31,321 bases of DNA from NCBI GenBank assembly GCA_046484755.1, contig JAWOII010000104.1, positions 64,001 to 95,321 on the forward strand, written 5' to 3'. Origin of the DNA: Enhygromyxa sp. (GTDB lineage Bacteria; Myxococcota_A; Polyangia; Nannocystales; Nannocystaceae). A model generated the notes under the pieces. The model was not told where the DNA came from, did no database searches, and saw only the letters and a program-made list of their open reading frames with translations. The translations under genes and the position numbers were made by a program. Below, one piece after another: positions 1,647 to 31,321 of this stretch (the stretch's first letter is position 1; the number at the start of each line of letters is the position of its first letter).

Positions 1647-4925
<3,279 letters not shown>

Positions 4926-5057: not shown

Positions 5058-6653
5058 ATGGCCCTGATCGGTTCCATGACGGCGTCGGTCTGGTTGGCGC
5101 CGATGATCCCCAAGCTGCCGCTTCCGCTCGCGCAGCGGATCGATCGCTTGCTGCAGGCCAAGCCAGGACGTGAGACCGAAGCGCACGCGCTGAAGCTGTG
5201 CGAGGCGATCGTCGCCTACGCCGCCTGTGTGCGCGTGGCGGTGGCGGTGGCGGTGGTACCGGCCGCTCGGCGCTCGGCGCTGAGCAAGGCGGTCGATGAG
5301 CTTCGCAAAGTGGTCGAGCGCGGCGAGGCGAGGATCGCGAACTTTCGCGACCTGCTCGTCGCGGCCGCCAACGCGATCGAGGCGCTCGAGCCCGGGCACC
5401 CCCTCGGCCGGACCGAGCTGACCCGGCCGCGCACCGCCTGGGTCGCGCGCACGCAGCTGGTCGAGGCGCTCGGCGACAGCGTCGCAGTCGACGAGGCGAC
5501 CCGAAGTGGGGCGCTCGAGGGCGGGATCGCGGGGATCGTCGATCTGTGGGTCGCGCTAGTCGAGGCTCGGCACGAGGTCGAGATCGAGGCGCAGGGCGAT
5601 CCGTGGCTGCCCGCGCTCGGGGACGTGATCGTCGACATGCTCGGGGCCTCGGCGCTGCTCGGGGAGGCCTCGCTCACGCATCCCGAGCCGCTCGACGAGG
5701 GCGGCGTCGGCGAGCTGCGACGTCTGCACGGGCTCGAGGCCGAGCCCGACGACGAGCCGGCCCCGCGCGAGGCCTACGAGCCGGGCGTCGTGTGCTGGCG
5801 CTTCGATGATCAGGTGGTGTCCTCGTGCGGGCTGCTCGGCTACTGGGCCGACGAGCACGACTTCGATCACGTCGGCGTGATCGCTCGGCAGCGCCAGACC
5901 GCTGCCTCTCAGGCATCCCCGCCAGCACCGACCGTCGCTTCGCTTCCGTCGGTACACCCATGCCATCCCGGGGATGCCGAGTACCTCGACTACGGCTCCG
6001 GGTCGCGCTCACCGGCCACCGGCGCAGGCCAGGTGGCCTGGGATCGGCTCCGGGTCACGGCCGTCGAGGTCGAGCCCGAGCGGAGCGCCTCGCCGGTGTT
6101 CGTGCTCGTGGCCGCGGCGATCGCCTTGTTGCTGGTGATCGCCGGCGTCGCCTGGGCGCTGTGGCCAGTCTCTGACTCGGGCGAGCCCGGCCAAGCGACC
6201 GGGAGCTCGGGCCAGCCGATCGCGCGGACCCAGCAGACCAAGGCTCAGCCCGAGGAGCCCGGGCCCGATCCGGAGTCGGAGATCGTCATCGAGACCGAGC
6301 CGGAGCCCGAGACCTCCGCACATGGGCTGGGCGGGCGCTCGTCGGGCGCCGAAGGCGAGGAGCCGGAGACCGCCGAGGCCGAGCTTCCGAGCGCTTCGCT
6401 TTGGTTCGAGAGCGAGCGCAACCTCGGCACCTGCTCGGTCACCTACGACGGCCGGACCCGCAACGCGAACCTCCACCTCAAGACCAGGGCGCCCGAAGGA
6501 AAGCTGGAGTTTTCCTACCGCTGCGGCGAACATCGGGGGCGAGGGTCGATCGACGTCAAGCGCAACCGGGTCAACGGAGTGCTGTTTTGCAAGAAGAACG
6601 GAGCGGTCAAGGTGAAGACCGTACGCAGCAACGAGGGCCGCTGTGATCGTTGA
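5058..6653 (+). CDS. Hypothetical membrane protein. It has a ~290-aa cytoplasmic N-domain, one TM segment (VFVLVAAAIALLLVIAGVAWALW), an acidic EPE linker and a C-terminal Cys-containing beta-rich domain.
   Basis: 531-aa ORF with good GC3 except in the 5913-5979 inserted palindromic element. Its stop overlaps the start of the next gene (GTGATCGTTGA). Confidence 0.6.
   Translation: MALIGSMTASVWLAPMIPKLPLPLAQRIDRLLQAKPGRETEAHALKLCEAIVAYAACVRVAVAVAVVPAARRSALSKAVDELRKVVERGEARIANFRDLLVAAANAIEALEPGHPLGRTELTRPRTAWVARTQLVEALGDSVAVDEATRSGALEGGIAGIVDLWVALVEARHEVEIEAQGDPWLPALGDVIVDMLGASALLGEASLTHPEPLDEGGVGELRRLHGLEAEPDDEPAPREAYEPGVVCWRFDDQVVSSCGLLGYWADEHDFDHVGVIARQRQTAASQASPPAPTVASLPSVHPCHPGDAEYLDYGSGSRSPATGAGQVAWDRLRVTAVEVEPERSASPVFVLVAAAIALLLVIAGVAWALWPVSDSGEPGQATGSSGQPIARTQQTKAQPEEPGPDPESEIVIETEPEPETSAHGLGGRSSGAEGEEPETAEAELPSASLWFESERNLGTCSVTYDGRTRNANLHLKTRAPEGKLEFSYRCGEHRGRGSIDVKRNRVNGVLFCKKNGAVKVKTVRSNEGRCDR
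5913..5979. repeat. About 66-bp palindromic REP/RPE-like element (10-bp TIR GGCATCCCCG/CGGGGATGCC) embedded in-frame in the 5058 ORF. Its paralogue lies at 31233-31298.
   Basis: About 92% identity to 31233-31298. Perfect terminal inverted repeats. Low GC3 in the host frame. Confidence 0.7.
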
Positions 6654-7770
6654 GCTGATCCTGAGCGCGGCGCTGGTCCTCGGTCCGCCGATGGGCGCGA
6701 GCCCGGAGGGACCGGCCGCGCCCGAAGAGGGTGAGCTGGGCGATGGCGAGCCAGGGGAGGGTGAGCCGGTCGAGGGTGAGCCGGGCGAGGGCGAGCCGGT
6801 CGAGGGCGAGCCGGGCGAGGGCGAGTCGGGCGAGGGTGAGCCCGAGGAGGGTGAGGGTGAGCCCGGCGAGGGTGAGCCCGAGGAGGCGATCGACGTCGAG
6901 ACGGAGGCGATCGTCGAGGCCGCCTCCGAGGCCGTCCAGGATCGCGCGGTGCTCGAGCGCAACAACAAGGAGGTGCCCGAGTTCGTCCGCCACCTCGACG
7001 CGCTAGCGACCGTCGAGGGCCGGCTCGACACCTGCGGTAAGGCGGTCCAGGCCGAGGCGCGCATGGATCTCGCGCTCGCCTACCTGCGGGTCGCCGGCAC
7101 CTGCGACGCCAACGAGCTCACCGACGATCAGCTCCCGGAGCTCGAGTATCCCCGCGAGTGCGCCGGCGCGGCCACCCCCCACGACTGCGCGGCCTACCTG
7201 CTCGAGCGCGCGGCCGAGTTCGGCGACAGCGGGCCGGCCGGGGCCGAGGACCCGCTCGCCCAGGCCGCGGGCTGCCCTCACGCGGCCGAGTCGATGTCCG
7301 TCGAGCGCATGTTCGGCGGCTGCGTGGCGCAGGAGTACGAGGCCGCGGTCGAGCGCTGGCGCGCGAGCCAGGGACCCCCGGCGCCGATCGTCGACGGACC
7401 CCGTCGCATCAACCTCCCGGTCCCCCGCTGGGGCAGCATCCTCGGCGTCTCCCTCGGCGTCGGGGCGATCGCCGCGGGGGCGGCCCTGGTCGCGATCGAC
7501 GGGCGCTGCCCCGGCGGCCACGACCCGATGACGGACATCGAACAGTGCCCGAACGTCTACAACACCGACGCGGGCGGAGCCGTGCTGCTCAGCGTCGGCG
7601 CCCTCGCGGTGCTCAGCATGGGCGCGATCTTGACGATCACCGAGATCCAGAAGAAGCGGGGGCGAGGCAAGGCCAGCGAGGCCGCGCTGCGTCGGCGGAT
7701 GGACCGGGTCGCCGCGATCACTGGATGGCAAGCACCGCGCCTCCGACTTCGGCCCCAGCGCCGGCTTTGA
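6643..7770 (+). CDS. Hypothetical protein with N-terminal (GEPGEGEPVE)n acidic repeats, a Cys-containing middle domain and two C-terminal TM segments.
   Basis: GTG start at 6643, 8 nt before the upstream gene's stop. 375 aa. The 3' ~50 codons are Arg-rich and overlap the convergent lipoprotein gene, so the true end may be earlier. Confidence 0.55.
   Translation: MIVELILSAALVLGPPMGASPEGPAAPEEGELGDGEPGEGEPVEGEPGEGEPVEGEPGEGESGEGEPEEGEGEPGEGEPEEAIDVETEAIVEAASEAVQDRAVLERNNKEVPEFVRHLDALATVEGRLDTCGKAVQAEARMDLALAYLRVAGTCDANELTDDQLPELEYPRECAGAATPHDCAAYLLERAAEFGDSGPAGAEDPLAQAAGCPHAAESMSVERMFGGCVAQEYEAAVERWRASQGPPAPIVDGPRRINLPVPRWGSILGVSLGVGAIAAGAALVAIDGRCPGGHDPMTDIEQCPNVYNTDAGGAVLLSVGALAVLSMGAILTITEIQKKRGRGKASEAALRRRMDRVAAITGWQAPRLRLRPQRRL
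6726..6890. repeat. 18/36-nt tandem coding repeats (ggcgagggcgagccggtcgagggtgagccg) encoding GEPGEGEPVEGEP.
   Basis: Visible periodicity in the sequence. Confidence 0.85.
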
Positions 7771-8670
7771 AGCCGACTAGGGTGTAGTCGCAGGTGTAGG
7801 GCGGCTGGGCGTCGCACTCGACCCGGTAGCCGAGCTCGGGCACGCTCTGGTGGTTTAGCGCGTGGGCGCCGATCAGGTGGACGATCTGGTCGACGGTGCC
7901 GAGGGCGGTGAAGCCCTCGCTCAAGCCGGCGGCCGAGCTCACGGTGGCCCCGGCCGCGACCGCGAGCGCGCCCTCGGGCAGGTCGAAGGCGACGAGCTTG
8001 ACCCCGAGGGTCGCGTCGAGGCCCTCGGGCTGGGTTACGCAGTACTCGACGGTGGCTGCCTCGCCGACGCTGGCCGTGCGGGAGAACTCGAACACCGGGG
8101 CCTCGCCGGGCAAGTAGCGCTCGACCGTGTCGACGAAGAAGCGCCCGTCGAGCGCGGCGGTCGAGAGCTCGCCGCAGCCCTGCTCGGTGGTGATCTCCAG
8201 CTCGTGGATCTCGGGCGCGGGGAAGTCGTCCCCGAGGCCGATGACCACGGCCACGCCCGCGACCCGCGAGTTGGGGGCCGCGCCGCTGGTCTCGATCTCG
8301 ACACCCCAGCTGTCGCCCTCGTCGGTCCAGGCGATCGAATAGCCGAGGGTCTCGCTCTGACCGGGCTCGTAGCGGCGGACCGCGGCGATCGGGACCGAGA
8401 CCTGCTCGGCCGGCTTGGGGATCTGCGCGGTGAAGGTGTCGTTGCCCTGGAGCGAGAAGCTGATGAACTCGAGCCCGAGGCTGCACGCCGGCTCGCCGCA
8501 GCCGGGCGGCTCGCCGGTCTCGGTCGGATCGCCGTCGCCAGTCGGATCGCCGTCGCCGGTCGGCTCATCGGTGGTCCCGTCGGCGCCGGCCTCCTGCGCG
8601 TAGGGGTTGGGTTCGGTGCAGGCGAGCCCGCCACCGATCACGAGCGCAATGACCATCGACGAGCGTCGCA
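7718..8670 (-). CDS. Lipoprotein. It has signal VRRSSMVIALVIGGGLAC (lipobox LAC), an acidic TGDGDPTGDGDP linker and a ~270-aa beta-rich domain of unknown function.
   Basis: C-terminal ~315 aa of track ORF 7718..9667 has protein-like composition, whereas the upstream part is Arg-rich noise. Start is GTG 8670 or ATG 8655. Confidence 0.7.
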
Positions 8671-9964: not shown

Positions 9965-10695
9965 CAAAACCGCAGGGTGAGGCCGCCAGGCGCGAGCTGC
10001 AGCCGCGCGGCGCTCGAGCGCGCGGCCTTGCGTCGCTGGACCCCGTCGACCGCGAACAGGGCGACGCCGGTGATCAGCGCCACGCCACCGGCGATGATCA
10101 GCCCGCGGGCGACCCACTGGTAGCTGTGGCCCTCGTCGAGCAAGCGCTGGTACTCGCCCGCGACCGGGCCGTAGGTGGTGGTCCGGCCGGTCGAGAGGTC
10201 GAAGCCGTAGGCCAGGCGCTCGGCTTCGTCCTCGCGGACCTCGGCGATCCCGGCAAAGATCCCGCCGCTGGTCGCGAGCGCGACCGCGGTGAAGGTCATC
10301 CACCAGCCTGCCGCCTGGAGCTTGGGCAGCCGCTCGGGCACGCCATCGACCTCGCCGGCGAGGCTCTCGCCTTCGAGGTCGGACTGGGCTCGGGTCGCGT
10401 TGGGGTCGTCGGGGTCGACGATCGCGCCCGCCACTCCGCCGCCGCTCGGGACGTCGCGGTGCTCGACCTCGACCTCGACCCCGGGCTCGCTCTCGGGCTC
10501 GACCTCGCTCTCGACCTCGCTCTCGGTCGCGTCGCTGGCTTCTCGAGCCGCGGCCGGATCCTCGTTGGCCGGCGGGGCGGCCCTGGATCCGATCGGTGCG
10601 AGCACGAGCGCGAGCGAGCCCAGCACCGCAGGCAGCCCGTGAAACCCACGACGGGCGCCCAGATCGGGGCAGCGCTCGATCAGCGTGGCGGGCAT
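9964..10695 (-). CDS. Hypothetical membrane protein with a signal/TM N-terminus, an acidic SEVESEVEPESEP tract and two TM helices.
   Basis: 243-aa ORF with hydrophobic segments and good GC3. Stop-start overlap couples it to the small lipoprotein gene. Confidence 0.6.
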   Translation of the reverse strand: MPATLIERCPDLGARRGFHGLPAVLGSLALVLAPIGSRAAPPANEDPAAAREASDATESEVESEVEPESEPGVEVEVEHRDVPSGGGVAGAIVDPDDPNATRAQSDLEGESLAGEVDGVPERLPKLQAAGWWMTFTAVALATSGGIFAGIAEVREDEAERLAYGFDLSTGRTTTYGPVAGEYQRLLDEGHSYQWVARGLIIAGGVALITGVALFAVDGVQRRKAARSSAARLQLAPGGLTLRF

Positions 10696-10793
10696 GTGCG
10701 CGGCAGGATAGCGGCCCGCTCGGGCTCGGGAAAGTCCGACCCTCGGGGTTCGGTGCCGGCTCGGACCTGCGCTCGTGTCCGTCGCGTGGACAA

Positions 10794-11333
10794 ATGCTAT
10801 GCACCCTCCACGTGGCCGCCGCGCGAACAGCGAGCCGATCAGCGGCTCGGACCGGAGGCCGAAGGCCCAGCACAGTCGCGCTCGGCTTGCTCCTCAGCCT
10901 CGCGCTCGGGTGTCCCGCCAACCTCGCGACCACCAGCTCGTCACCGCAGTCGAGCTACCCGCCCCCCTCGGTCTACGACTTCGACCCCGAATTCGCCGGC
11001 GAGTGGCTCGGCGACGTCGACGGGCTCGGGGGCACCCTCAAGATCGGGGTGCTCGACGATCGGACCTTCTTCGGATCCTTCGTCACGGACGACGACGGGA
11101 CCGAGTACACGCTGCTGCTCGACCACACCTACGTCGAGACCGAAGAGGGCGGCGAGGCGCCGAGCAACCGCACGACCTTCACCTGGCAAGACGGGCTCGG
11201 CAGCCGCGGCAAGGGCTGGCTGCTGATCAACCGCGAGGACACGGCCTTGACCGGGTCCTTCGGCTACGGGCTGGCGACCACCGGGCTCGGGCAGTGGAGC
11301 TTCGAGCGGGTCGACTCGATGCTGAGCGAGTGA
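10794..11333 (+). CDS. Lipoprotein (…RRPSTVALGLLLSLALGC lipobox) with a ~150-aa domain of unknown function.
   Basis: ATG 10794 within track ORF 10596..11333. The upstream residues are Arg/Ala noise. Signal peptide with Cys lipobox. Confidence 0.6.
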   Translation: MLCTLHVAAARTASRSAARTGGRRPSTVALGLLLSLALGCPANLATTSSSPQSSYPPPSVYDFDPEFAGEWLGDVDGLGGTLKIGVLDDRTFFGSFVTDDDGTEYTLLLDHTYVETEEGGEAPSNRTTFTWQDGLGSRGKGWLLINREDTALTGSFGYGLATTGLGQWSFERVDSMLSE

Positions 11334-11356: not shown

Positions 11357-12574
11357 TCATCGTCGCGGACGCCGACGCAGGCCCAGCCCGAGCAGCCCGA
11401 GCAGCCCGAGCCCCGTGAGCGCTGAGCCGCCCGGCGCGCTCGAGCAGCTGCAGCCGACGTCGGCCTCCTCGCCGCCGATCGGCACGAAGCCGCCGCCGCC
11501 GGCCGTGGTCTCGGGCTCGTCGCCGTCGTCGGTGCCCGGCTCCCCGTCGCCCGGATCGCCGTCGCCCGGATCGCCGTCGCCGTCGCCCGGCTCCCCGTCG
11601 CCGTCCCCGGTGGCGTCGCACATGTCGACGCAGATCGGCACCTGCGTGGTCGTCTGCCCGCCGTCGAAGTCGTAGGCGGTGATCTCCAGCACCTGCGAGC
11701 CCGCAGGTAGCTCCACGTTGTTCCAGCGAAACGGCCAGTCCTCATCGACGACCGGCGGCGCGTCGAGGCCGACGACCGAGAGCTCGGCCGAGACCCCGCC
11801 GAAGTCGTCGATGATCTCGACGACCACGTCGAAGGGCCCGGACACCAGGGCGTCGACGGCCGGCTCGAGGACCACGAGCTCCGGGGGGCCGTCGTCGACC
11901 CGGGCGCCGTGGCGCGCGACCATCTCGGCGGTCCCGTTTTGCTGCCCGGCCGGGCACAGCTGATGGTTGCAGTTGGAGGTCCCGCTGACCGGCACGCAGC
12001 TGTCGCCGTACTTCAACCCGAAGTTCGAGTAGCTGCCCATGACCTGGCCCGAGACGCTCACGTTCTCCATCCCCCAGCTGTAGCCGAGCGCCCCGAGCAC
12101 CGAGAAGGCCACCCGGTGGGGGTCGAACCACTTGCTCTCGTCGAGGCAGCCCCAGAATAAAAAGCCGATCGACACCCCGTTGCCGTCATCGCAGTCGGCG
12201 ATCCCGACCTGCGGCGAGCAGGCCCCGCCGAAGGCCGAGGCGTGATCGCCCGCGTCGCCGAACACGATCATGTCGTAGGGCCCGACCGCCGGCCGCTCGA
12301 GGGTGAAGACCACGTCCCAGTAGACCGTGGTCTGCTTGAGCAGGTGGAGCAGCTCCTGCCGCTGCTCCTCGGTCGCGCCGTTCCAGCCGGCGAAGCTAGT
12401 CGGCGTGTAGCCGTTGACGCTGATCGTGTCGGCCGCCGGATCATTTTGATCGCCGGCGAGCACCGTGACCGGACCGGTGTTGATGTAGACCACGCGCTTG
12501 GCCTCGGCCCGGGCGGGCACGAGCGCGCAACAAAGGCCCGCGAGGGGGATGAGCAGGCGTCGCTTCGAAGTCAT
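11357..12574 (-). CDS. Secreted protein with N-terminal signal peptide, central domain, (GDGDGEPGDGDGDPGDGDP) acidic linker and C-terminal MYXO-CTERM-type sorting tail (GCSCSS…LTGLGLLGLLGLGLRRRPRR).
   Basis: 405-aa ORF. Signal MTSKRRLLIPLAGLCCALVPARAEA. The C-terminal Cys motif, hydrophobic helix and Arg cluster are the hallmark of the Myxococcales MYXO-CTERM signal. Confidence 0.75.
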   Translation of the reverse strand: MTSKRRLLIPLAGLCCALVPARAEAKRVVYINTGPVTVLAGDQNDPAADTISVNGYTPTSFAGWNGATEEQRQELLHLLKQTTVYWDVVFTLERPAVGPYDMIVFGDAGDHASAFGGACSPQVGIADCDDGNGVSIGFLFWGCLDESKWFDPHRVAFSVLGALGYSWGMENVSVSGQVMGSYSNFGLKYGDSCVPVSGTSNCNHQLCPAGQQNGTAEMVARHGARVDDGPPELVVLEPAVDALVSGPFDVVVEIIDDFGGVSAELSVVGLDAPPVVDEDWPFRWNNVELPAGSQVLEITAYDFDGGQTTTQVPICVDMCDATGDGDGEPGDGDGDPGDGDPGDGEPGTDDGDEPETTAGGGGFVPIGGEEADVGCSCSSAPGGSALTGLGLLGLLGLGLRRRPRR

Positions 12575-16131: not shown

Positions 16132-16212
16132 CGCGGCCGACTGTAACAGCTTCCCCCCCGAGCGGGCGGAGCAACTTGCACGGCCCCAGGAGGGCTGCTT
16201 CGATGGCCCTCG

Positions 16213-16779
16213 GTGGCCCGGCGGCTGAGCAACTCGATAGCGATCGACGACGCGCCCTTTGACCGGGCCCACCGCGGCGACGTGGCGATCGTCGGCGTCG
16301 TGTTCACCCGCACCCGGCTCGACGGGGTCATGACCGGCAAGCTCCGCAAGGACGGCGCCAACGCGACCTCGGCGATCGCCGAGCTGGTCGAAGGCTCGCC
16401 CTTCGCCGCCCACGCCCAGGTGCTGCTGCTCGGCGGCATCACCTTCGGGGGCTTCAACGTGGTCGACATCCACGCCCTGCGCGAGCGGCTCGAGCTCCCG
16501 GTCCTGGTCCTCGCCCGCAAAAAGCCCCGCTACGCGATCATCGAGGAGACCCTGCGCGAGAAGGTCCCGGGCGGGGCTCGCAAGTGGGCGCTGATCGAGA
16601 AGGCCGGGCCGATGGAGGCCTGCGCGGGGCTTTGGGTGCAGCGAGCCGGGCTCGAGCTCGACGCGGCCGCGCAGGTGATCGGCGACCTCACGATCCACGG
16701 CAAGCTGCCCGAGCCGGTCCGCATCGCTCACCTGGTCGCGGGCGGCTACGGCTGCGGGATCAGCCGCGGGCGAGCTTGA
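16213..16779 (+). CDS. DUF99/UPF0215-family protein (archaeal-type RNase-H-like-fold protein of unknown function).
   Basis: GTG 16213. Motifs IAIDDAPF, VAIVGVVF, DGANATSAIAEL, LLLGGITFGGFNVVDI and LPVLVLARKKP match the DUF99 pattern as I recall it. Confidence 0.6.
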   Translation: MARRLSNSIAIDDAPFDRAHRGDVAIVGVVFTRTRLDGVMTGKLRKDGANATSAIAELVEGSPFAAHAQVLLLGGITFGGFNVVDIHALRERLELPVLVLARKKPRYAIIEETLREKVPGGARKWALIEKAGPMEACAGLWVQRAGLELDAAAQVIGDLTIHGKLPEPVRIAHLVAGGYGCGISRGRA

Positions 16780-16801: not shown

Positions 16802-17812
16802 CTACTGCTGGACGCAGTACAGCCGCCGCGGCCACTGACACTGGGACATGGAGTTGTTGCTGATGAAGTTGCTCTCGTGGGTGGAGATGCCCGACCTGCC
16901 CGTCGCCGCGTCGGTCCCGATCGACCAGTTGTTGCAGTTCGAGTCGGACCGCCAGCTCGGGATCATGCCCGTCCAGACCCCGTTGCCGCTGTCGGGGCCG
17001 ATCGCGTGCTGGAGCGGCATGGCCTGGCCCATGGCGACGCCGAGCAGCGCCTCGTGGCCGGTGATCGCCAGCAGCTGGCCCTGGTCGTTGATGTAGTGGG
17101 TGAAGGGCTGGAGCACCCAGTCGACCTGGCCATCGCCGGCGAAGTCGGTGAGGGTCGCAACCCGGTTCACGCCGTCGGAGATCATCGCCCGGTAGCCGCC
17201 GGGGCACTTGCTGTCGGCGCCCGCGATGCCGCCGAGGTCGCCGCTGAAGGTCTCGAGGGTGATCAGGATCTCGCGCTGCTCGACGTAGCCGGAGCACTCC
17301 GGGTTGCAGTCGCCGAGGTTGATGCCGTTGTTGGGCCCTTCGTCGCAGACCTCACCCTCGCCGATCTGGCCGTCGCCGCACACGTTCGGCGGATCGCCGT
17401 CGCCGTCTCCGGTGTCGCCGTCGCCGTCACCAGAGTCGCCGTCACCGTCACCGGAGTCACCATCGCCATCGCCATCGCCATCGCCGTCGCCGGTATCGCC
17501 ATCGCCGTCACCGGAGTCGCCATCACCGTCACCGGAGTCGCCATCACCGTCACCGGTGCTCGGGTCGCCGTCGCCGTCGCCGGTCGCCGAGGTGTCGACG
17601 CACAGCCCCTGAACACACTCGTAGGTGCCGAAGCAAGTCAGGTTGGGCAGGCACTCACAGTCGACGCGGCCCGGCTCGCACGCGTCTCCGGTCTCGCTCG
17701 AGTCGTCGTTGCCGACTGGATCCGGATCCTCGAAGCAACCAACCAGGGCCCCGGCCGCGAACAGGCCCAGGGACGAGAGGAGCAAGGTCAGAGGACGAAG
17801 CTGCATGGGCAT
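16802..17812 (-). CDS. Lipoprotein (MPMQLRPLTLLLSSLGLFAAGALVGC). It has an N-terminal Cys-rich module, a (GDGDGDSGDGDGDT)n acidic repeat, a Myxococcus-type Cys-rich repeat (CGDGQIGEGEVCDEGPNNGINLGDCNPEC) and a C-terminal ~200-aa domain, possibly DUF1554-like.
   Basis: ATG 17812/17806 inside track ORF 16802..18145. Lipobox LVGC. The CxDGxxxxGExCDxGxxN…C module is typical of myxobacterial secreted proteins. Confidence 0.75.
   Translation of the reverse strand: MPMQLRPLTLLLSSLGLFAAGALVGCFEDPDPVGNDDSSETGDACEPGRVDCECLPNLTCFGTYECVQGLCVDTSATGDGDGDPSTGDGDGDSGDGDGDSGDGDGDTGDGDGDGDGDGDSGDGDGDSGDGDGDTGDGDGDPPNVCGDGQIGEGEVCDEGPNNGINLGDCNPECSGYVEQREILITLETFSGDLGGIAGADSKCPGGYRAMISDGVNRVATLTDFAGDGQVDWVLQPFTHYINDQGQLLAITGHEALLGVAMGQAMPLQHAIGPDSGNGVWTGMIPSWRSDSNCNNWSIGTDAATGRSGISTHESNFISNNSMSQCQWPRRLYCVQQ
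17395..17592. repeat. 18-nt tandem coding repeats encoding GDGDGD(S/T) in the 16802-17812 lipoprotein.
   Basis: Visible periodicity (tcgccgtcaccggagtcgccatcaccgtcacc…). Confidence 0.85.
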
Positions 17813-18132
17813 GGGAGGATGGTTACCACAACGGGCGAACGCCGAGGACTCCCAGCGACCCCCGAGCGAGGCCTGGTCGACCGGGCAGGGAGCTCGAACC
17901 CTCACATCGAGCCCTCCCCACGTCCGGGCTCGTGAGCCGAGCGAGAGATCAATCTGGGGCCAAGACGGTCTCGCGCAGATCGAGGCCCGCACCCACGGCG
18001 AGCGGGCCCCCTGCGAGGCCCAGAGCCGGGCCTGGCTCGTCGCAGGGGGTCGCGGACGAGCCCGAAAAAAGATCGAGGGCTCGAGCAAATAGTCTGCAAT
18101 CGCCCGATCGGCGGGCCGACAAGGCTTAGGCC

Positions 18133-19203
18133 ATGTCGTGGTCACCTCCGCAATGTCCCGAGTGCTCCTCCTTCTCCACCCGTTTCGAGCGCGTGATGCC
18201 CTTCGGCCCGCCCGACCTGTACGGCCTCTACTGGGAGTGCGAAAGCTGTCGCTCCCGGGTGCTCGAGCTGTGCCCGACCGGGGTCGACGATCCGCGGCCT
18301 GGCGGCTGCCTCAATTGCGGGGCAGCGGTCGACGCCAGCGGCCGCTGTCCGGACTGCGGCGTCGAGCGTCCGCAGCTGCTCGAGCGCGTGCACGCCCACT
18401 GCGGCTCGCCGCCGCAGCTCGACGCCGTCGAGGCGCTGATCGACCAGGGCCTGTTTCGCCTGGCCTTCAACACGGTCGACCTGTGCCTCGAGCAGCGGCC
18501 GGATGATCCGCCGGTCCTCGCCCTCAAGGCCAAGCTGCTGCTCGAGGTCCAGCGTCCGGAGCGGGCCGTGCCCCTGCTGCGCCGGGCGCTCGATCGGGGG
18601 CTCGACGAGCCTAGCGCTCGGATCAACTTCGGCATCGCGTTGTCACGCAGCGGCCGCCAGCAAGAGGCGATTCGTGTCTACCAAGATCACCTCGCTTGCG
18701 AGACCGAGCCCTCGTGTCGGGCGATCCTGCTTAGCAACATCGGTGGCTGCCTCAGCGCCCTCGGTCACACCAAGCAGGCCGAGGCCTATCACCGCCGGGC
18801 GATCGAAGCCGACCCCGAGCACCTCGGCCCGCGCTGGAACCTGTTCGCCAACTTGTTTGGTAGCCAGCAGTACGAGGGCGCCCTCGAGGTCGTCGAGCAG
18901 ACCATGGCGCTGTCCTTCCTCGAGCCGGACGAGCGCGAGAACCTGCAAGCCTACCGCTCGGAGGTCCTGATCTCCTTGCGTCGCTACCAAGACGCGCTCG
19001 CGGCCATCGACGCCAGCTTGGCCAGCGATCCTTGCGAGCTCAACCGGCTCGGGACCCGGGCCCGGATCCTGATCCACCTCGACGCCGTCGAAGCGGCCCG
19101 GGCCTGCATCGCGCAGATCCTCAGCCTCGATCCCAAGCACAAGATCGCTCTGCACCTGCTCGAGCGGCTCGATCGCCGGGCCGGGCCCGGGGCGCGGAAT
19201 TGA
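18133..19203 (+). CDS. Protein with two N-terminal zinc-ribbon motifs (CPEC…CESC; CLNC…CPDC) followed by tetratricopeptide (TPR) repeats.
   Basis: 356-aa ORF. Four CxxC pairs in the first 80 aa. TPR-like 34-aa helical repeats (AEAYHRRAIEADPEH…). Stop TGA is inside the palindrome TGATCA, shared with the convergent gene. Confidence 0.7.
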   Translation: MSWSPPQCPECSSFSTRFERVMPFGPPDLYGLYWECESCRSRVLELCPTGVDDPRPGGCLNCGAAVDASGRCPDCGVERPQLLERVHAHCGSPPQLDAVEALIDQGLFRLAFNTVDLCLEQRPDDPPVLALKAKLLLEVQRPERAVPLLRRALDRGLDEPSARINFGIALSRSGRQQEAIRVYQDHLACETEPSCRAILLSNIGGCLSALGHTKQAEAYHRRAIEADPEHLGPRWNLFANLFGSQQYEGALEVVEQTMALSFLEPDERENLQAYRSEVLISLRRYQDALAAIDASLASDPCELNRLGTRARILIHLDAVEAARACIAQILSLDPKHKIALHLLERLDRRAGPGARN

Positions 19204-28868: not shown

Positions 28869-29885
28869 ATGCCAGCCCGCTTTGCGCACCGCCGCGCGTT
28901 CGAAGCTGTGACACGGCTCGTCATCACCCAAGGAGACCCGGCCGGCATCGGCCCCGAGCTGCTCTTGCGCATCGCCAACGAGGGGGTGCTCGACGCGGAC
29001 GACGTGGTCGTCGCGGACCGCGGGGTCCTGCGGGAGCTGGCCGCCAAGCTCGCGGCCCCGTGGGCGAGGGCAGGGCTCGAGCGGATCCTCGATAGGGAGG
29101 GGGCGCTCGATCCGGGCTTTGGATCGGGCGGGCAGTTCGCGGCCCTCGAGCGGGGCGTCGATCTCGTGCTCGCCGAGCCCGATCCCGCGCGCCGCCCCGC
29201 GCTGGTCACCGCCCCGATCGACAAGGCCGTGGCCAGCCGCGAGGGCCTGCGCCACCCCGGCCACACCGAGTACCTAGCCGAGCGCGCGGGGGTCGAGGAC
29301 TTCGCCATGCTGATGGCCGGGCCGACGATCCGGGTGGTGCTCGCGACCATCCACGTCCCCCTGCGCGAGGTCCCGCGGCGCCTCGACGAGGCCGCGATCC
29401 TCCGGGCCGGCTCGCTGCTCGCCGAGGCGCTGGTCCGCGACTTCGGGATCCCGGCCCCGCGAATCGGCGTGCTCGGCCTCAACCCCCACGCCGGCGAGGG
29501 CGGGCTGCTCGGCGACGAAGAGCTGCGGGTGATCGCCCCGGCGATCGAGCGGCTGCGCGCGTGGTCGGCCGCGCGGCAGCTCGCCGCCGAGTTTCGCGGC
29601 CCGCTGCCGGCCGACACCGCCTTTCACCACCACCGCGTCGGCGAGCTCGACGGCGTGGTCGCGATGTACCACGACCAGGGCCTCGGCCCCTTCAAGCTCG
29701 CCCACTTCTACGACGGCGTGAACGTGACCCTCGGGCTGCCCTTCGTGCGGACCTCGCCCGATCACGGCACCGCCAAGGACATCGCCGGCCGCGGCCTCGC
29801 CGATCCGGCCAGCCTGCTCGCGGCGATCCGGCTCGCGCGATCGATGGCCGCGCGTCGGGCAGGAGCTCCAGATGACAGCGGCTGA
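28869..29885 (+). CDS. pdxA: 4-hydroxythreonine-4-phosphate dehydrogenase PdxA
   Basis: ITQGDPAGIGPE motif and PdxA-like length. The start is either ATG 28869 (MPARFAHRR) or the in-frame ATG 28851. The latter overlaps the divergent gene's ATG in a CATG tetramer. Confidence 0.85.
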   Translation: MPARFAHRRAFEAVTRLVITQGDPAGIGPELLLRIANEGVLDADDVVVADRGVLRELAAKLAAPWARAGLERILDREGALDPGFGSGGQFAALERGVDLVLAEPDPARRPALVTAPIDKAVASREGLRHPGHTEYLAERAGVEDFAMLMAGPTIRVVLATIHVPLREVPRRLDEAAILRAGSLLAEALVRDFGIPAPRIGVLGLNPHAGEGGLLGDEELRVIAPAIERLRAWSAARQLAAEFRGPLPADTAFHHHRVGELDGVVAMYHDQGLGPFKLAHFYDGVNVTLGLPFVRTSPDHGTAKDIAGRGLADPASLLAAIRLARSMAARRAGAPDDSG

Positions 29886-31321
29886 GGAAAGGATCCCCCC
29901 CGGGGGTCAGCACGAGCGGCCGCGGTCGACGGGCCCCGAGCGAGGGAAGCGAGCTGCGCAAACCCAGACGGTCGCGGCGGGCAGGAAGATCCGGATCCGC
30001 GGAGCCCGGACCCACAACCTCCGCGACCTCGATCTCGACCTCCCCCGCGACAAGCTGATCGTGGTCACCGGCCCCTCGGGCTCGGGCAAGAGCAGCCTCG
30101 CCTTCGACACGATCTTCGCCGAGGGCCAGCGCCGCTACGTCGAGAGCCTCAGCGCCTCGGCCCGGCAGTTCCTCGCCCAGCTGCCCAAGCCCGACGCCGA
30201 CCTGATCGAGGGCCTGAGCCCGACCATCGCGCTCTCGCAGGAGAACCGGGCCCGAAACCCGCGCTCGACCGTCGGCACCACCACCGAGGTCTATGACTAC
30301 CTGCGGCTGTTGTTCGCCCGGATCGGCGAGGTCTACAGCTGGCGCAGCGGCCAGCCGATGCGGCGCCACACCGTCGAGGAGATGGTCGACGCGATCGAGG
30401 CCCTGCCGCCGCGCAGCAAGTTCTCGGTCATCGCCCCGGTGGTCCGCGGCGCGCCCGGGGATCACCGCGAGCTGCTCGAGGATCTGCGCCGGCAGGGCTT
30501 CGTGCGGGTCGCGATCGACGATCAGCTGCGCGACCTCGACGAGGACATCAGCCTCGACCCCGACGCGCGCCACAGCGTCGAGGTCTACGTCGATCGCCTG
30601 GTGCTCAAGCCCGGGATCCGCTCGCGCCTCGCCCAGTCGATCGAGCTGGCCCTGCAGGTCGCCGAGGGCCGCGTCACGATCCTCCCGCTCGAGGGTGAGC
30701 CGCTCGAGTTCGCCGAGCGCTACACCGACTTCGAGCACGGCCTGAGCTACCCGGAGATCACCCCGGGCCTGTTCTCCTTCAACAGCCCCGAGGGCGCCTG
30801 CCCGACTTGCGGCGGCCTCGGCCACCGGCGGGTGATCGACCCCCGGCGGCTGATCCCCGATCCACGCAAGAGCATCAAGGAGGGCGCGCTCGCGGGGCTC
30901 GGCCGGGCCGCGTCCAGCCTCGAGCGCCAGCTCGCCGCGCTCGCGGCCCACCTCGACATCGATCTCTACGCCCCCTGGGAGGAGCTCGACGAACTCGACC
31001 GCCTGACGATCCTCCACGGCAGCGGCGACCGGCTGATCCCGCCGCTCGACGAGGACCAGCCGGCCAGGCCCAAGCCCGGGACCAAGGCCAACAAGCAGGC
31101 CAAGAAAAAGTCCAAGAAACAGACCAAGAAAAAGCTCGAGCAGCAGCCCAGGCGAGCCGAGGCCGAGCGAGGCGAGCCCTTCCCCGGCGTGATCCCCCTG
31201 CTCGAGCAGCGCCTGCTCGAGAGCGTCTCCGGGTCTCCCCGCCAGCACCGACCGTCCGCTTCGCGTCCTTCGGTACACCCATCCCATCCCGGGGAGACGG
31301 GGAGCCGGGTCGACGCCGATC
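29872..31321 (+). CDS. uvrA: Excinuclease ABC subunit A (UvrA), 5'-partial, running off the window end. It carries a Lys-rich insertion and a ~66-bp palindromic element in the region equivalent to E. coli residues ~360-390.
   Basis: Not in the ORF track because it has no stop. I read the frame from ATG 29872, which overlaps the pdxA stop. Matches UvrA: [62 protein letters not shown] … [18 protein letters not shown]. Confidence 0.85.
31233..31298. repeat. Second copy of the ~66-bp palindromic element (TIR GTCTCCCCG/CGGGGAGAC), in-frame inside uvrA.
   Basis: About 92% identical to 5913-5979. GC3 drops relative to flanking uvrA codons. Confidence 0.7.

Follow-up and report, generated by a model that had tools for sequence, protein, structure and literature searches.

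A family of 75-nt palindromic repeats residing in genes of Enhygromyxa-like bacteria

How did the same short palindrome come to lie inside two unrelated genes of one bacterial contig? The question is raised by a stretch of 31,321 nt from contig JAWOII010000104.1 of a metagenome-assembled genome (MAG) of Enhygromyxa sp. (Nannocystaceae), referred to here as the window, whose last nucleotide (31321) is also the contig end. Copy A of the palindrome lies in a gene for a hypothetical membrane protein, and copy B in a partial uvrA gene. In this work, both were found to belong to a repeat family of which 23 DNA copies at 20 sites, together with three further host proteins, were recovered. We consider, with moderate confidence, that the segments are copies of a non-autonomous mobile element of Enhygromyxa-like (Nannocystaceae) chromosomes that is most likely moved in trans by an HUH-type transposase.

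The hairpin unit and its family

The initial annotation had described two segments of ~66 bp with ~92% identity. The identity was reproduced, with a value of 93.3% across 60 nt and a single 1-nt indel (E = 7e-17 within the window), and 59 of 68 positions are identical across the whole palindrome. On the other hand, the size had been set too low, as the conserved unit comprises 75 nt in copy A and 76 nt in copy B, including an 8-nt tail. The perfect terminal inverted repeats of 9–10 bp were found as described, in the form of a 10-bp stem in copy A (Table 1) and a 9-bp stem in copy B (GTCTCCCCG, 31233-31241, with CGGGGAGAC, 31290-31298), and the stem differences between the copies are indeed compensatory (C-G to T-A and A-T to C-G). 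Copy B has one additional C at ~31250. As a result of the indel, A and B differ in the reading frame of their first halves and agree in that of their second halves, in which both encode the peptide ...PSVHP(C/S)HPG(D/E) noted earlier. Since the first halves are read in different frames, the conservation between A and B is at the DNA level and not at the protein level. An example of the element-encoded peptide is ASPPAPTVASLPSVHPCHPGDA. The G+C content at third codon positions (GC3) is low in both copies, as had been stated, with 0.60 in copy A vs 0.89 in the rest of its gene, and 0.69 vs 0.94 for copy B. A third copy was found in the window neither by nhmmer nor by the covariance model with filters off. 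A 10-mer shared by the two loci (CGGCGTGATC, 5870-5879 and 31188-31197), located 35-47 nt upstream of the respective copy, codes for the conserved 'GVI' in each of the two host proteins; it is missing upstream of the other 18 sites and was judged to be probably a coincidence.

The alignment of 22 complete copies gave a unit of 75 nt (69-73% G+C), in which an 8-nt pyrimidine-rich tail (GKWTCTCR) is followed by a 67-nt palindrome. The length is exactly 75 nt in 20 of them, the others being copy B (76 nt) and a decayed copy on L069 (74 nt). The tail is located 5' of the palindrome in 22/22 copies and has no mirror on the 3' side; it belongs to the inserted DNA, because the insert measures 75 and not 67 nt. 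Furthermore, three tandem pairs on contigs of the JGI metagenome Ga0079224 have an exact 75-nt period, and the repeats seen in proteins are of 25 residues. The unit folds into a 10-bp outer stem, an asymmetric internal loop (5 nt/15 nt), and an inner stem with a GCTTCGC cap. The best DNA fold is that of the minus strand (z = -3.4 and -4.2), where the cap reads GCGAAGC, a very stable DNA mini-hairpin. Overall, the z-scores of fold energy range from -2.2 to -4.2, so the folding check that had been proposed returned a stable hairpin. Among 21 distinct sequences, pairing in the outer stem reaches 98%. Changes on both sides were seen in three of its pairs (GC to CG, CG to TA, and AT to CG), which none of 500 shuffles matched, and the earlier claim that compensation keeps the hairpin can be extended to the whole family. 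The inner stem has six invariant pairs, and the remainder shift between subtypes with the structure preserved.

The count of copies, which the initial annotation had left to be checked, exceeds two by far, with 21 further DNA copies in four other assemblies in addition to the three proteins. The recurrence of the element in independent NCBI, ENA, JGI, and SRA-derived data excludes an assembly chimera, which had been named as a possible cause of the similarity. A first protein search with six-frame translations of copies A and B identified the element in a wax-ester synthase, an Fpg/Nei glycosylase (Enhygromyxa MAG), a nicotinamidase-NUDIX fusion, and an MFS transporter. The frame or the orientation of the element is different in each of these four proteins, and three of these copies are 94-100% identical to copy A at the DNA level. 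A second protein search added R6X02_28360, a hypothetical protein of the same MAG with two tandem 25-residue units, and a protein of a read-based set with three such units. The three further host proteins counted above are P0131 and P0134 (both from the MAG of the window) and P0135, each with in-frame copies. A pattern common to all variants recovered 18 copies in 15 contigs of Ga0079224. Several core positions distinguish this metagenome subtype from that of the window; internally it is near-invariant, with a handful of substitutions across the 67-nt cores. Several metagenome copies lie at contig ends (L071, L076, and L077), and these repeats probably break assemblies.

Some search patterns were less useful. 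The 17-nt block CCGCCAGCACCGACCGT gave 58 matches in viral contigs, all of them chance matches from Gly/Thr-rich tail-fibre-like coding DNA, and two-block patterns were used after it had proved unspecific. In species-representative genomes, the five matches of the 19-mer GGTACACCCATNCCATCCCG were also due to chance, with no element present; this 19-mer is specific to the window subtype, so the scan says nothing on the metagenome subtype in cultured Nannocystaceae. A first, stricter pattern had no match in a metagenome collection that evidently does not hold the copy-bearing JGI samples 3300078363 and 3300078497. The element was found neither in viral contigs nor in plasmid and phage collections.

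Residence in genes and empty sites

All eight orthologues of host protein A (48-70% identity) are without exactly 25 residues at the site of copy A. In two of them (L082 and L083), the empty site was also seen at the DNA level, where the sequence reads ...GCC|GAG TAC CTC GAC TAC, and the window reads ...GCT(75 nt ending in GCC)GAG TAC CTC GAC TAC. The comparison with orthologues suggested in the initial annotation thus revealed the expected empty sites. The reverse case is given by the metagenome contig L075 from a related species, which is orthologous to window positions 10423-11315 (70-85% identity by blastn). A lipoprotein gene of L075 has two tandem units (150 nt, 2 × 75) at its 5' end, in contrast to the empty site of the window, and in a manual alignment L075 minus these 150 nt has the same length as the window. 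The ATG of the lipoprotein gene (window 10794-10835 vs L075 3700-3740) is in frame in the window and out of frame in L075 through a 2-nt difference. Translation in L075 probably starts at GTG or at an ATG inside the inserted element, where GGGGATGCC contains ATG.

At 12 of the 20 sites, one open frame of high GC3 runs through the element and on at both sides. Copy B, placed by alignment with UvrA homologues in a linker of variable length, is probably gene-internal as well, and seven sites are at gene 5' ends or intergenic. The host genes include those of acetyl-CoA synthetase, nicotinamidase, Fpg/Nei, UvrA, and an MFS transporter. Relative to solved homologues, the nicotinamidase, Fpg/Nei, and acetyl-CoA synthetase have ~22-29 excess residues (nominally 25) between conserved blocks. 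Moreover, there are three cases in which a Pfam domain spans the element or is split by it (AMP-binding, Metallophos_2, and HupE_UreJ). With respect to the host gene, 8 copies are in sense and 10 in antisense orientation, and across the two orientations five or more reading frames are in use. The unit has four to six open frames out of six, according to the variant. The tolerance of the element in genes can be ascribed to its length of 25 codons combined with its high G+C content, and the inserted codons would be translated. These further in-frame host proteins bear out the earlier comparison with Rickettsia palindromic elements (RPEs), according to which the segment is tolerated as an additional peptide in unrelated genes. 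The claim that both reading frames are unbroken stands for copy A, which adds 25 codons after which the host gene continues. It is uncertain for copy B, which measures 76 nt, as the uvrA frame can be followed only to the contig end, 22 nt after the copy.

Integration sites and mode of spread

A target-site duplication, the remaining check that had been proposed, was not found in any fixed form at the copies; flanking direct repeats vary from 0 to 13 nt and are mostly imperfect despite the near-identical cores. The target is biased nevertheless. The trinucleotide RCY forms the left flank at 13 of the 20 sites, vs a background of 0.09 (p = 1e-9), and matches the last three bases of the unit itself (GCC). 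On the right flank, G is present at +1 in 16 of 19 sites, and the consensus GGNTCNC is tail-like. Because both flanks match the ends of the unit, the targets look like the head-to-tail junction of an array (GCC|GGTTCTC; RCY|GGNTC). The DNA 3' of several copies (window 31300-31315, L066, L080, and L076) resembles a second tail with a collapsed palindrome, for example GGTTCTCA followed by GGCC in L080, and GGGAGCCG followed by GGTCGACG after copy B. At such right flanks, an adjacent unit may have lost its hairpin. The idea of excision 'footprints' (a tail followed by GGCC) was dropped, since the six matches counted in the window do not significantly exceed the 2.95 expected, even if copies B, E (L066), and L080 have footprint-like right flanks.

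We hypothesize that the element spreads as a folded single strand that an HUH-type tyrosine transposase processes in trans, in a manner comparable to RAYT/TIRYT or IS200/IS605. Such an enzyme would integrate the unit without target-site duplication, 3' of an RCY (GCC-like) trinucleotide and at junction-like sites (GCC|GGTTCTC). The 3' end of the unit would then recreate the target, and this would explain the head-to-tail arrays. A landing in a gene would usually add a 25-residue loop rich in Pro, Ser, Gly, and Ala and leave the gene unbroken, and the copies in tolerant loops and linkers would persist. Mobility is supported directly by the multiple copies, the empty sites, the in-frame residence, the compensated hairpin, the absent fixed duplication, and the target bias. 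An HUH-type single-strand mechanism is favoured because of the hairpin compensation, the asymmetric ends, and the lack of target duplication, from which we infer both the single-stranded intermediate and the class of the enzyme.

Several observations weigh against this explanation. The search for a transposase of whatever type was negative in the window and beside the copies (~116 kb, 18 loci), according to the Pfam annotation of 19 window genes and of 20 genes adjoining other copies. The element forms one composite hairpin instead of separate left-end and right-end hairpins, and it is without a conserved GTAG or CGTC tag. Its 8-nt tail is far more variable than the core, which is not predicted by a simple cut-and-paste of a fixed unit, and resembles the right flank of the same copy more than the right flanks of other copies (permutation p = 0.0014). 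In the IS608 model only bases 5' of the cut are recognised, and the element-like 3' flank accords at least as well, if not better, with a step of recombination or microhomology. Stop codons are avoided barely beyond what base composition predicts (P = 0.03-0.36), with no sign of adaptation to coding DNA. In addition, the contig end lies close behind copy B, and the 76-nt length of this copy may shift the uvrA frame.

The same tail similarity, the target preference on both sides of the junction, and the negative transposase search would be expected if the family had spread without a dedicated transposase, either through microhomology-guided template switching or through recombination of a donor unit, array, or small circle with junction-like sites, the arrays growing by slippage. 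We regard this as rather unlikely, although there is more to be said for it. The direct repeats at the junctions are of variable length (13 nt in L080, 8 in L070, 7 in L075, 6 in L069, and 4 in L068), and three GCTGGYT repeats around the pair in L075 resemble slippage. However, about half of the sites have hardly any repeat past two or three bases, and the tails of neighbouring units differ in L071 and L077, so these arrays are not simple duplications. The presence of whole units only, with near-identical cores, at 20 or more unrelated loci is hard to reconcile with untargeted template switching, and the compensation in the stem suggests that some machinery recognises the hairpin.

A bolder interpretation, which we find doubtful, is that of a distinct gene-dwelling transposon. 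Its 25-codon hairpin unit would be excised as a tiny circle or copied by a rolling circle and integrated without duplication at sites that mimic the junction on both sides, by a recombinase that is neither a RAYT acting on tagged REPs (repetitive extragenic palindromes) nor a DDE enzyme, and the hypervariable tail would be a scar of joining. Myxobacteria make multicopy single-stranded DNA in abundance, and in a remoter version the unit may be derived from such retron-like DNA.

[quoted passage not shown] Perfect 9-10-bp terminal repeats, a small size, multiple copies, and the flanking repeat of L080, with 8 perfect nt (in fact 13), would all suit it. On the other hand, there is no duplication of fixed length, and at about half of the sites the flank and the tail match in at most 3 of 8 positions even though the cores are near-identical. 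The ends are asymmetric, with the 8-nt tail on one side only, and the outer arms co-vary, the opposite of what sequence-specific binding of terminal repeats predicts.

Still less probable, to a degree that we consider very low, is a hairpin that is not selfish and is maintained by selection as a signal acting at the RNA or DNA level (for example, a regulatory structure, a ribozyme, a small RNA, a terminator, or a site for protein binding). Its structure is kept through compensatory changes and its fold is stabler than that of shuffled sequence, as such a signal would require; but Rfam gave no credible family match at either gathering or permissive thresholds (E <= 1-10), the element occurs in either orientation to the host gene and inside the catalytic domains of unrelated enzymes, and the orthologues function without it. 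Finally, a homologous protein module or an assembly or sequencing artefact, as the location of copy B at the contig end and the similar peptides of the second halves of A and B could suggest, is hardly credible for DNA that occurs in either orientation and in five or more frames (A and B already differ in the frame of their first halves) and that recurs with its own variants in independent NCBI, ENA, JGI, and SRA-derived assemblies.

Genomic setting and comparison with known systems

The features of the window that concern the element are listed in Table 1.

Table 1. Coordinates of the two copies, their host genes, and the empty site in the window
Feature	Position	Strand	Remarks
Host gene A, R6X02_13545	5058..6653	+	531-aa conserved hypothetical membrane protein without Pfam domain
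Copy A, full 75-nt unit in host gene A	5904..5978	+	25 codons, ASQASPPAPTVASLPSVHPCHPGDA; top covariance-model match, 90.5 bits
Copy A, 5' tail	5904..5911	+	8 nt, pyrimidine-rich, GCCTCTCA; family consensus GKWTCTCR
Copy A, outer stem, left arm	5912..5921	+	GGCATCCCCG; pairs with 5969-5978; from folding and compensatory variants of the family
Copy A, inner hairpin	5927..5953	+	ACCGAC...GTCGGT, cap GCTTCGC (GCGAAGC on the minus strand); from folding
Copy A, outer stem, right arm	5969..5978	+	CGGGGATGCC; final GCC is the preferred trinucleotide 5' of insertions
Empty site, 5' end of lipoprotein gene	10815..10835	+	insertion point ~10824/10825 ± 7 nt; filled in L075
Host gene B, R6X02_13665, 5' part of uvrA-family gene	29872..31321	+	cut off by contig end
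Copy B, 76-nt unit in variable linker of partial uvrA	31224..31299	+	covariance-model match, 70.5 bits

Host protein A is identical to R6X02_13545 of Enhygromyxa sp., and the uvrA fragment to R6X02_13665, which is annotated as 'partial' (P0010); both records lie on a contig of 95,321 nt. The copies in the window are surrounded by ordinary chromosome, with genes for greA, carB, a zinc-type alcohol dehydrogenase, an NmrA-like protein, an endonuclease-dU/NucS-like protein, a GntR regulator, a porin, a deacetylase, a Ser/Thr kinase, pdxA, and uvrA. The endonuclease gene (16147-16776) has a strong Pfam match to Endo_dU (PF01949, NucS/EndoMS-type endonuclease). The family of host protein A (relatives P0002-P0009) is without a Pfam domain and was encountered in a few metagenomes only. 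It has a highly conserved N-terminus, MTAxVWLAPMIPKLPLPLAQR, and a C-terminal domain that contains Cys, WFESERNLG.C...RCGEHRGRGSIDVKRNRVNGVLFCKK. The family member P0006 has a (PAPK)n expansion of ~190 residues near the linker in which copy A sits. In UvrA, a Lys-rich insert is encoded just upstream of copy B (window 31040-31160); it is missing from most homologues, with only the closest homologue having part of it, and represents a second lineage-specific insertion within the linker that holds copy B.

The window also contains other repeats. The statement in the initial annotation that the two segments form the only such pair holds in so far as there is no third copy; Asp-Gly tandem repeats and a carB duplication do exist, neither of them being a dispersed pair of this type. 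The former are 12/24-nt tandem repeats (GTCGCC/ATCGCC on the plus strand) in long runs at 230-630, 8493-8588, 11503-11638, and 17346-17599; read on the minus strand, they give Asp-Gly-rich repeats in several proteins that appear to be secreted, among them one with DUF1554 (16805-18310). Their repetitiveness is far above that of the 75-nt element. Beside an Asp-Gly repeat region, a 71-nt inverted repeat (77-147/199-269) is 76% complementary with its arms 51 nt apart. The carB direct repeats (2294-2965 vs 3920-4603; 71-80% identity, ~1630 nt apart) correspond to the known internal duplication of carbamoyl-phosphate synthase. Downstream of host gene A, a 15-nt tandem repeat (6699-6906) encodes (GEGEP)n at the start of gene 6643-7770.

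It is not yet settled by what means short palindromic repeats move or how frequently they remodel proteins, and the family is an unusually clean case, with near-identical copies, which imply recent activity, and with presence/absence differences between related species. The exact 25-codon units occur singly and in arrays inside well-understood enzymes, and there are cultivable relatives (Enhygromyxa salina). The family is also relevant for annotation, as in G+C-rich MAGs the units probably break contigs, as at the end of the window, and add spurious-looking 25-residue inserts to proteins.

The closest parallel in behaviour is that of the RPEs (RPE-1 and related; Ogata et al., 2000), summarised in PMC10969869 and PMC3733652. 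RPEs and the present unit alike are palindromic and code for nothing by themselves, they reside in frame in many unrelated genes that seem to be functional and to which they add a short peptide, and no dedicated transposase is known for either. What an RPE-like element should display was found here, namely a stable hairpin fold and in-frame residence in unrelated genes whose orthologues are without the element. However, RPEs have ~100-150 bp and belong to the reduced genomes of intracellular Rickettsia, whereas the present unit has 75 bp, an asymmetric 8-nt tail, and exact head-to-tail arrays, and occurs in a free-living myxobacterial lineage. The comparison was made with RPE descriptions, and homology between the two is unlikely in view of the base composition (69-73% G+C) and the host. 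To our knowledge, no transposase is known for RPEs or for CGTC-type REPs.

Intragenic REPs tagged with GTAG or CGTC were reported for several free-living bacteria by Di Nocera, De Gregorio and Rocco in 2013 (PMC3733652). Often it is uvrA or another repair gene that harbours them, be it as a single unit, a dimer, or a cluster, with 20-30 or more residues encoded, and RAYT-type tyrosine transposases are presumed to move them (PMC3733652). The likeness lies in small palindromes inside genes of free-living bacteria. REPs, however, are of 20-40 bp, have an unpaired GTAG/CGTC end tag, and are mostly extragenic. The present palindrome of 67 nt (unit of 75 nt) exceeds this length, forms a single composite hairpin, and is intragenic at ~60% or more of the sites, 12 of 20 being clearly gene-internal. 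GTAG is present in the metagenome subtype only (GGTAGAACC), 3' of the inner stem and thus at the wrong end; the window-type copies have GTAC in its place, and CGTC lies within the inner hairpin region and is not terminal. A RAYT gene was not found in the window or in the 18 loci examined.

REPIN/RAYT, TIRYT, and IS200/IS605 systems share with the element the compensated hairpins, the lack of target duplication, the conserved short sequence 5' of the insertion, and a target-like 3' end. A GGGGWSAS motif is reported for TIRYT-associated repeats (PMC3733652), and the GGGGAGAC arm of copies B and D fits it, which is a lead and not a test. As in IS200/IS605, the insertions are without target duplication and 3' of a short specific sequence (RCY at 13/20 sites; GCC|GAG). 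In contrast to IS200/IS605, there is one composite hairpin with an 8-nt tail on one side and not distinct subterminal hairpins, and the 3' flank is also element-like, which the IS608 model does not require. No Y1 HUH transposase was found in the ~116 kb examined.

Bacterial MITEs with target duplications include Correia/NEMIS, ERIC, RUP, BOX, and the Coxiella QMITE (PMC10969869). The present family resembles them in small size, terminal inverted repeats, multiple copies, and occasional in-frame gene fusions, and differs in having no fixed target-site duplication, co-varying arms, asymmetric ends, and no known parent insertion sequence, for which the plasmid, phage, and viral collections gave nothing. 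As to novelty, the supposition that such elements had not been described for myxobacteria agrees with our literature searches, which returned no report of them in this group, but intragenic palindromes are known beyond Rickettsia, uvrA included (PMC3733652). We file the element as a new family of a known type of gene-dwelling palindromic repeat, set apart by published descriptions and by its absence from Rfam; it introduces no new principle and extends a known phenomenon to a new phylum-level lineage.

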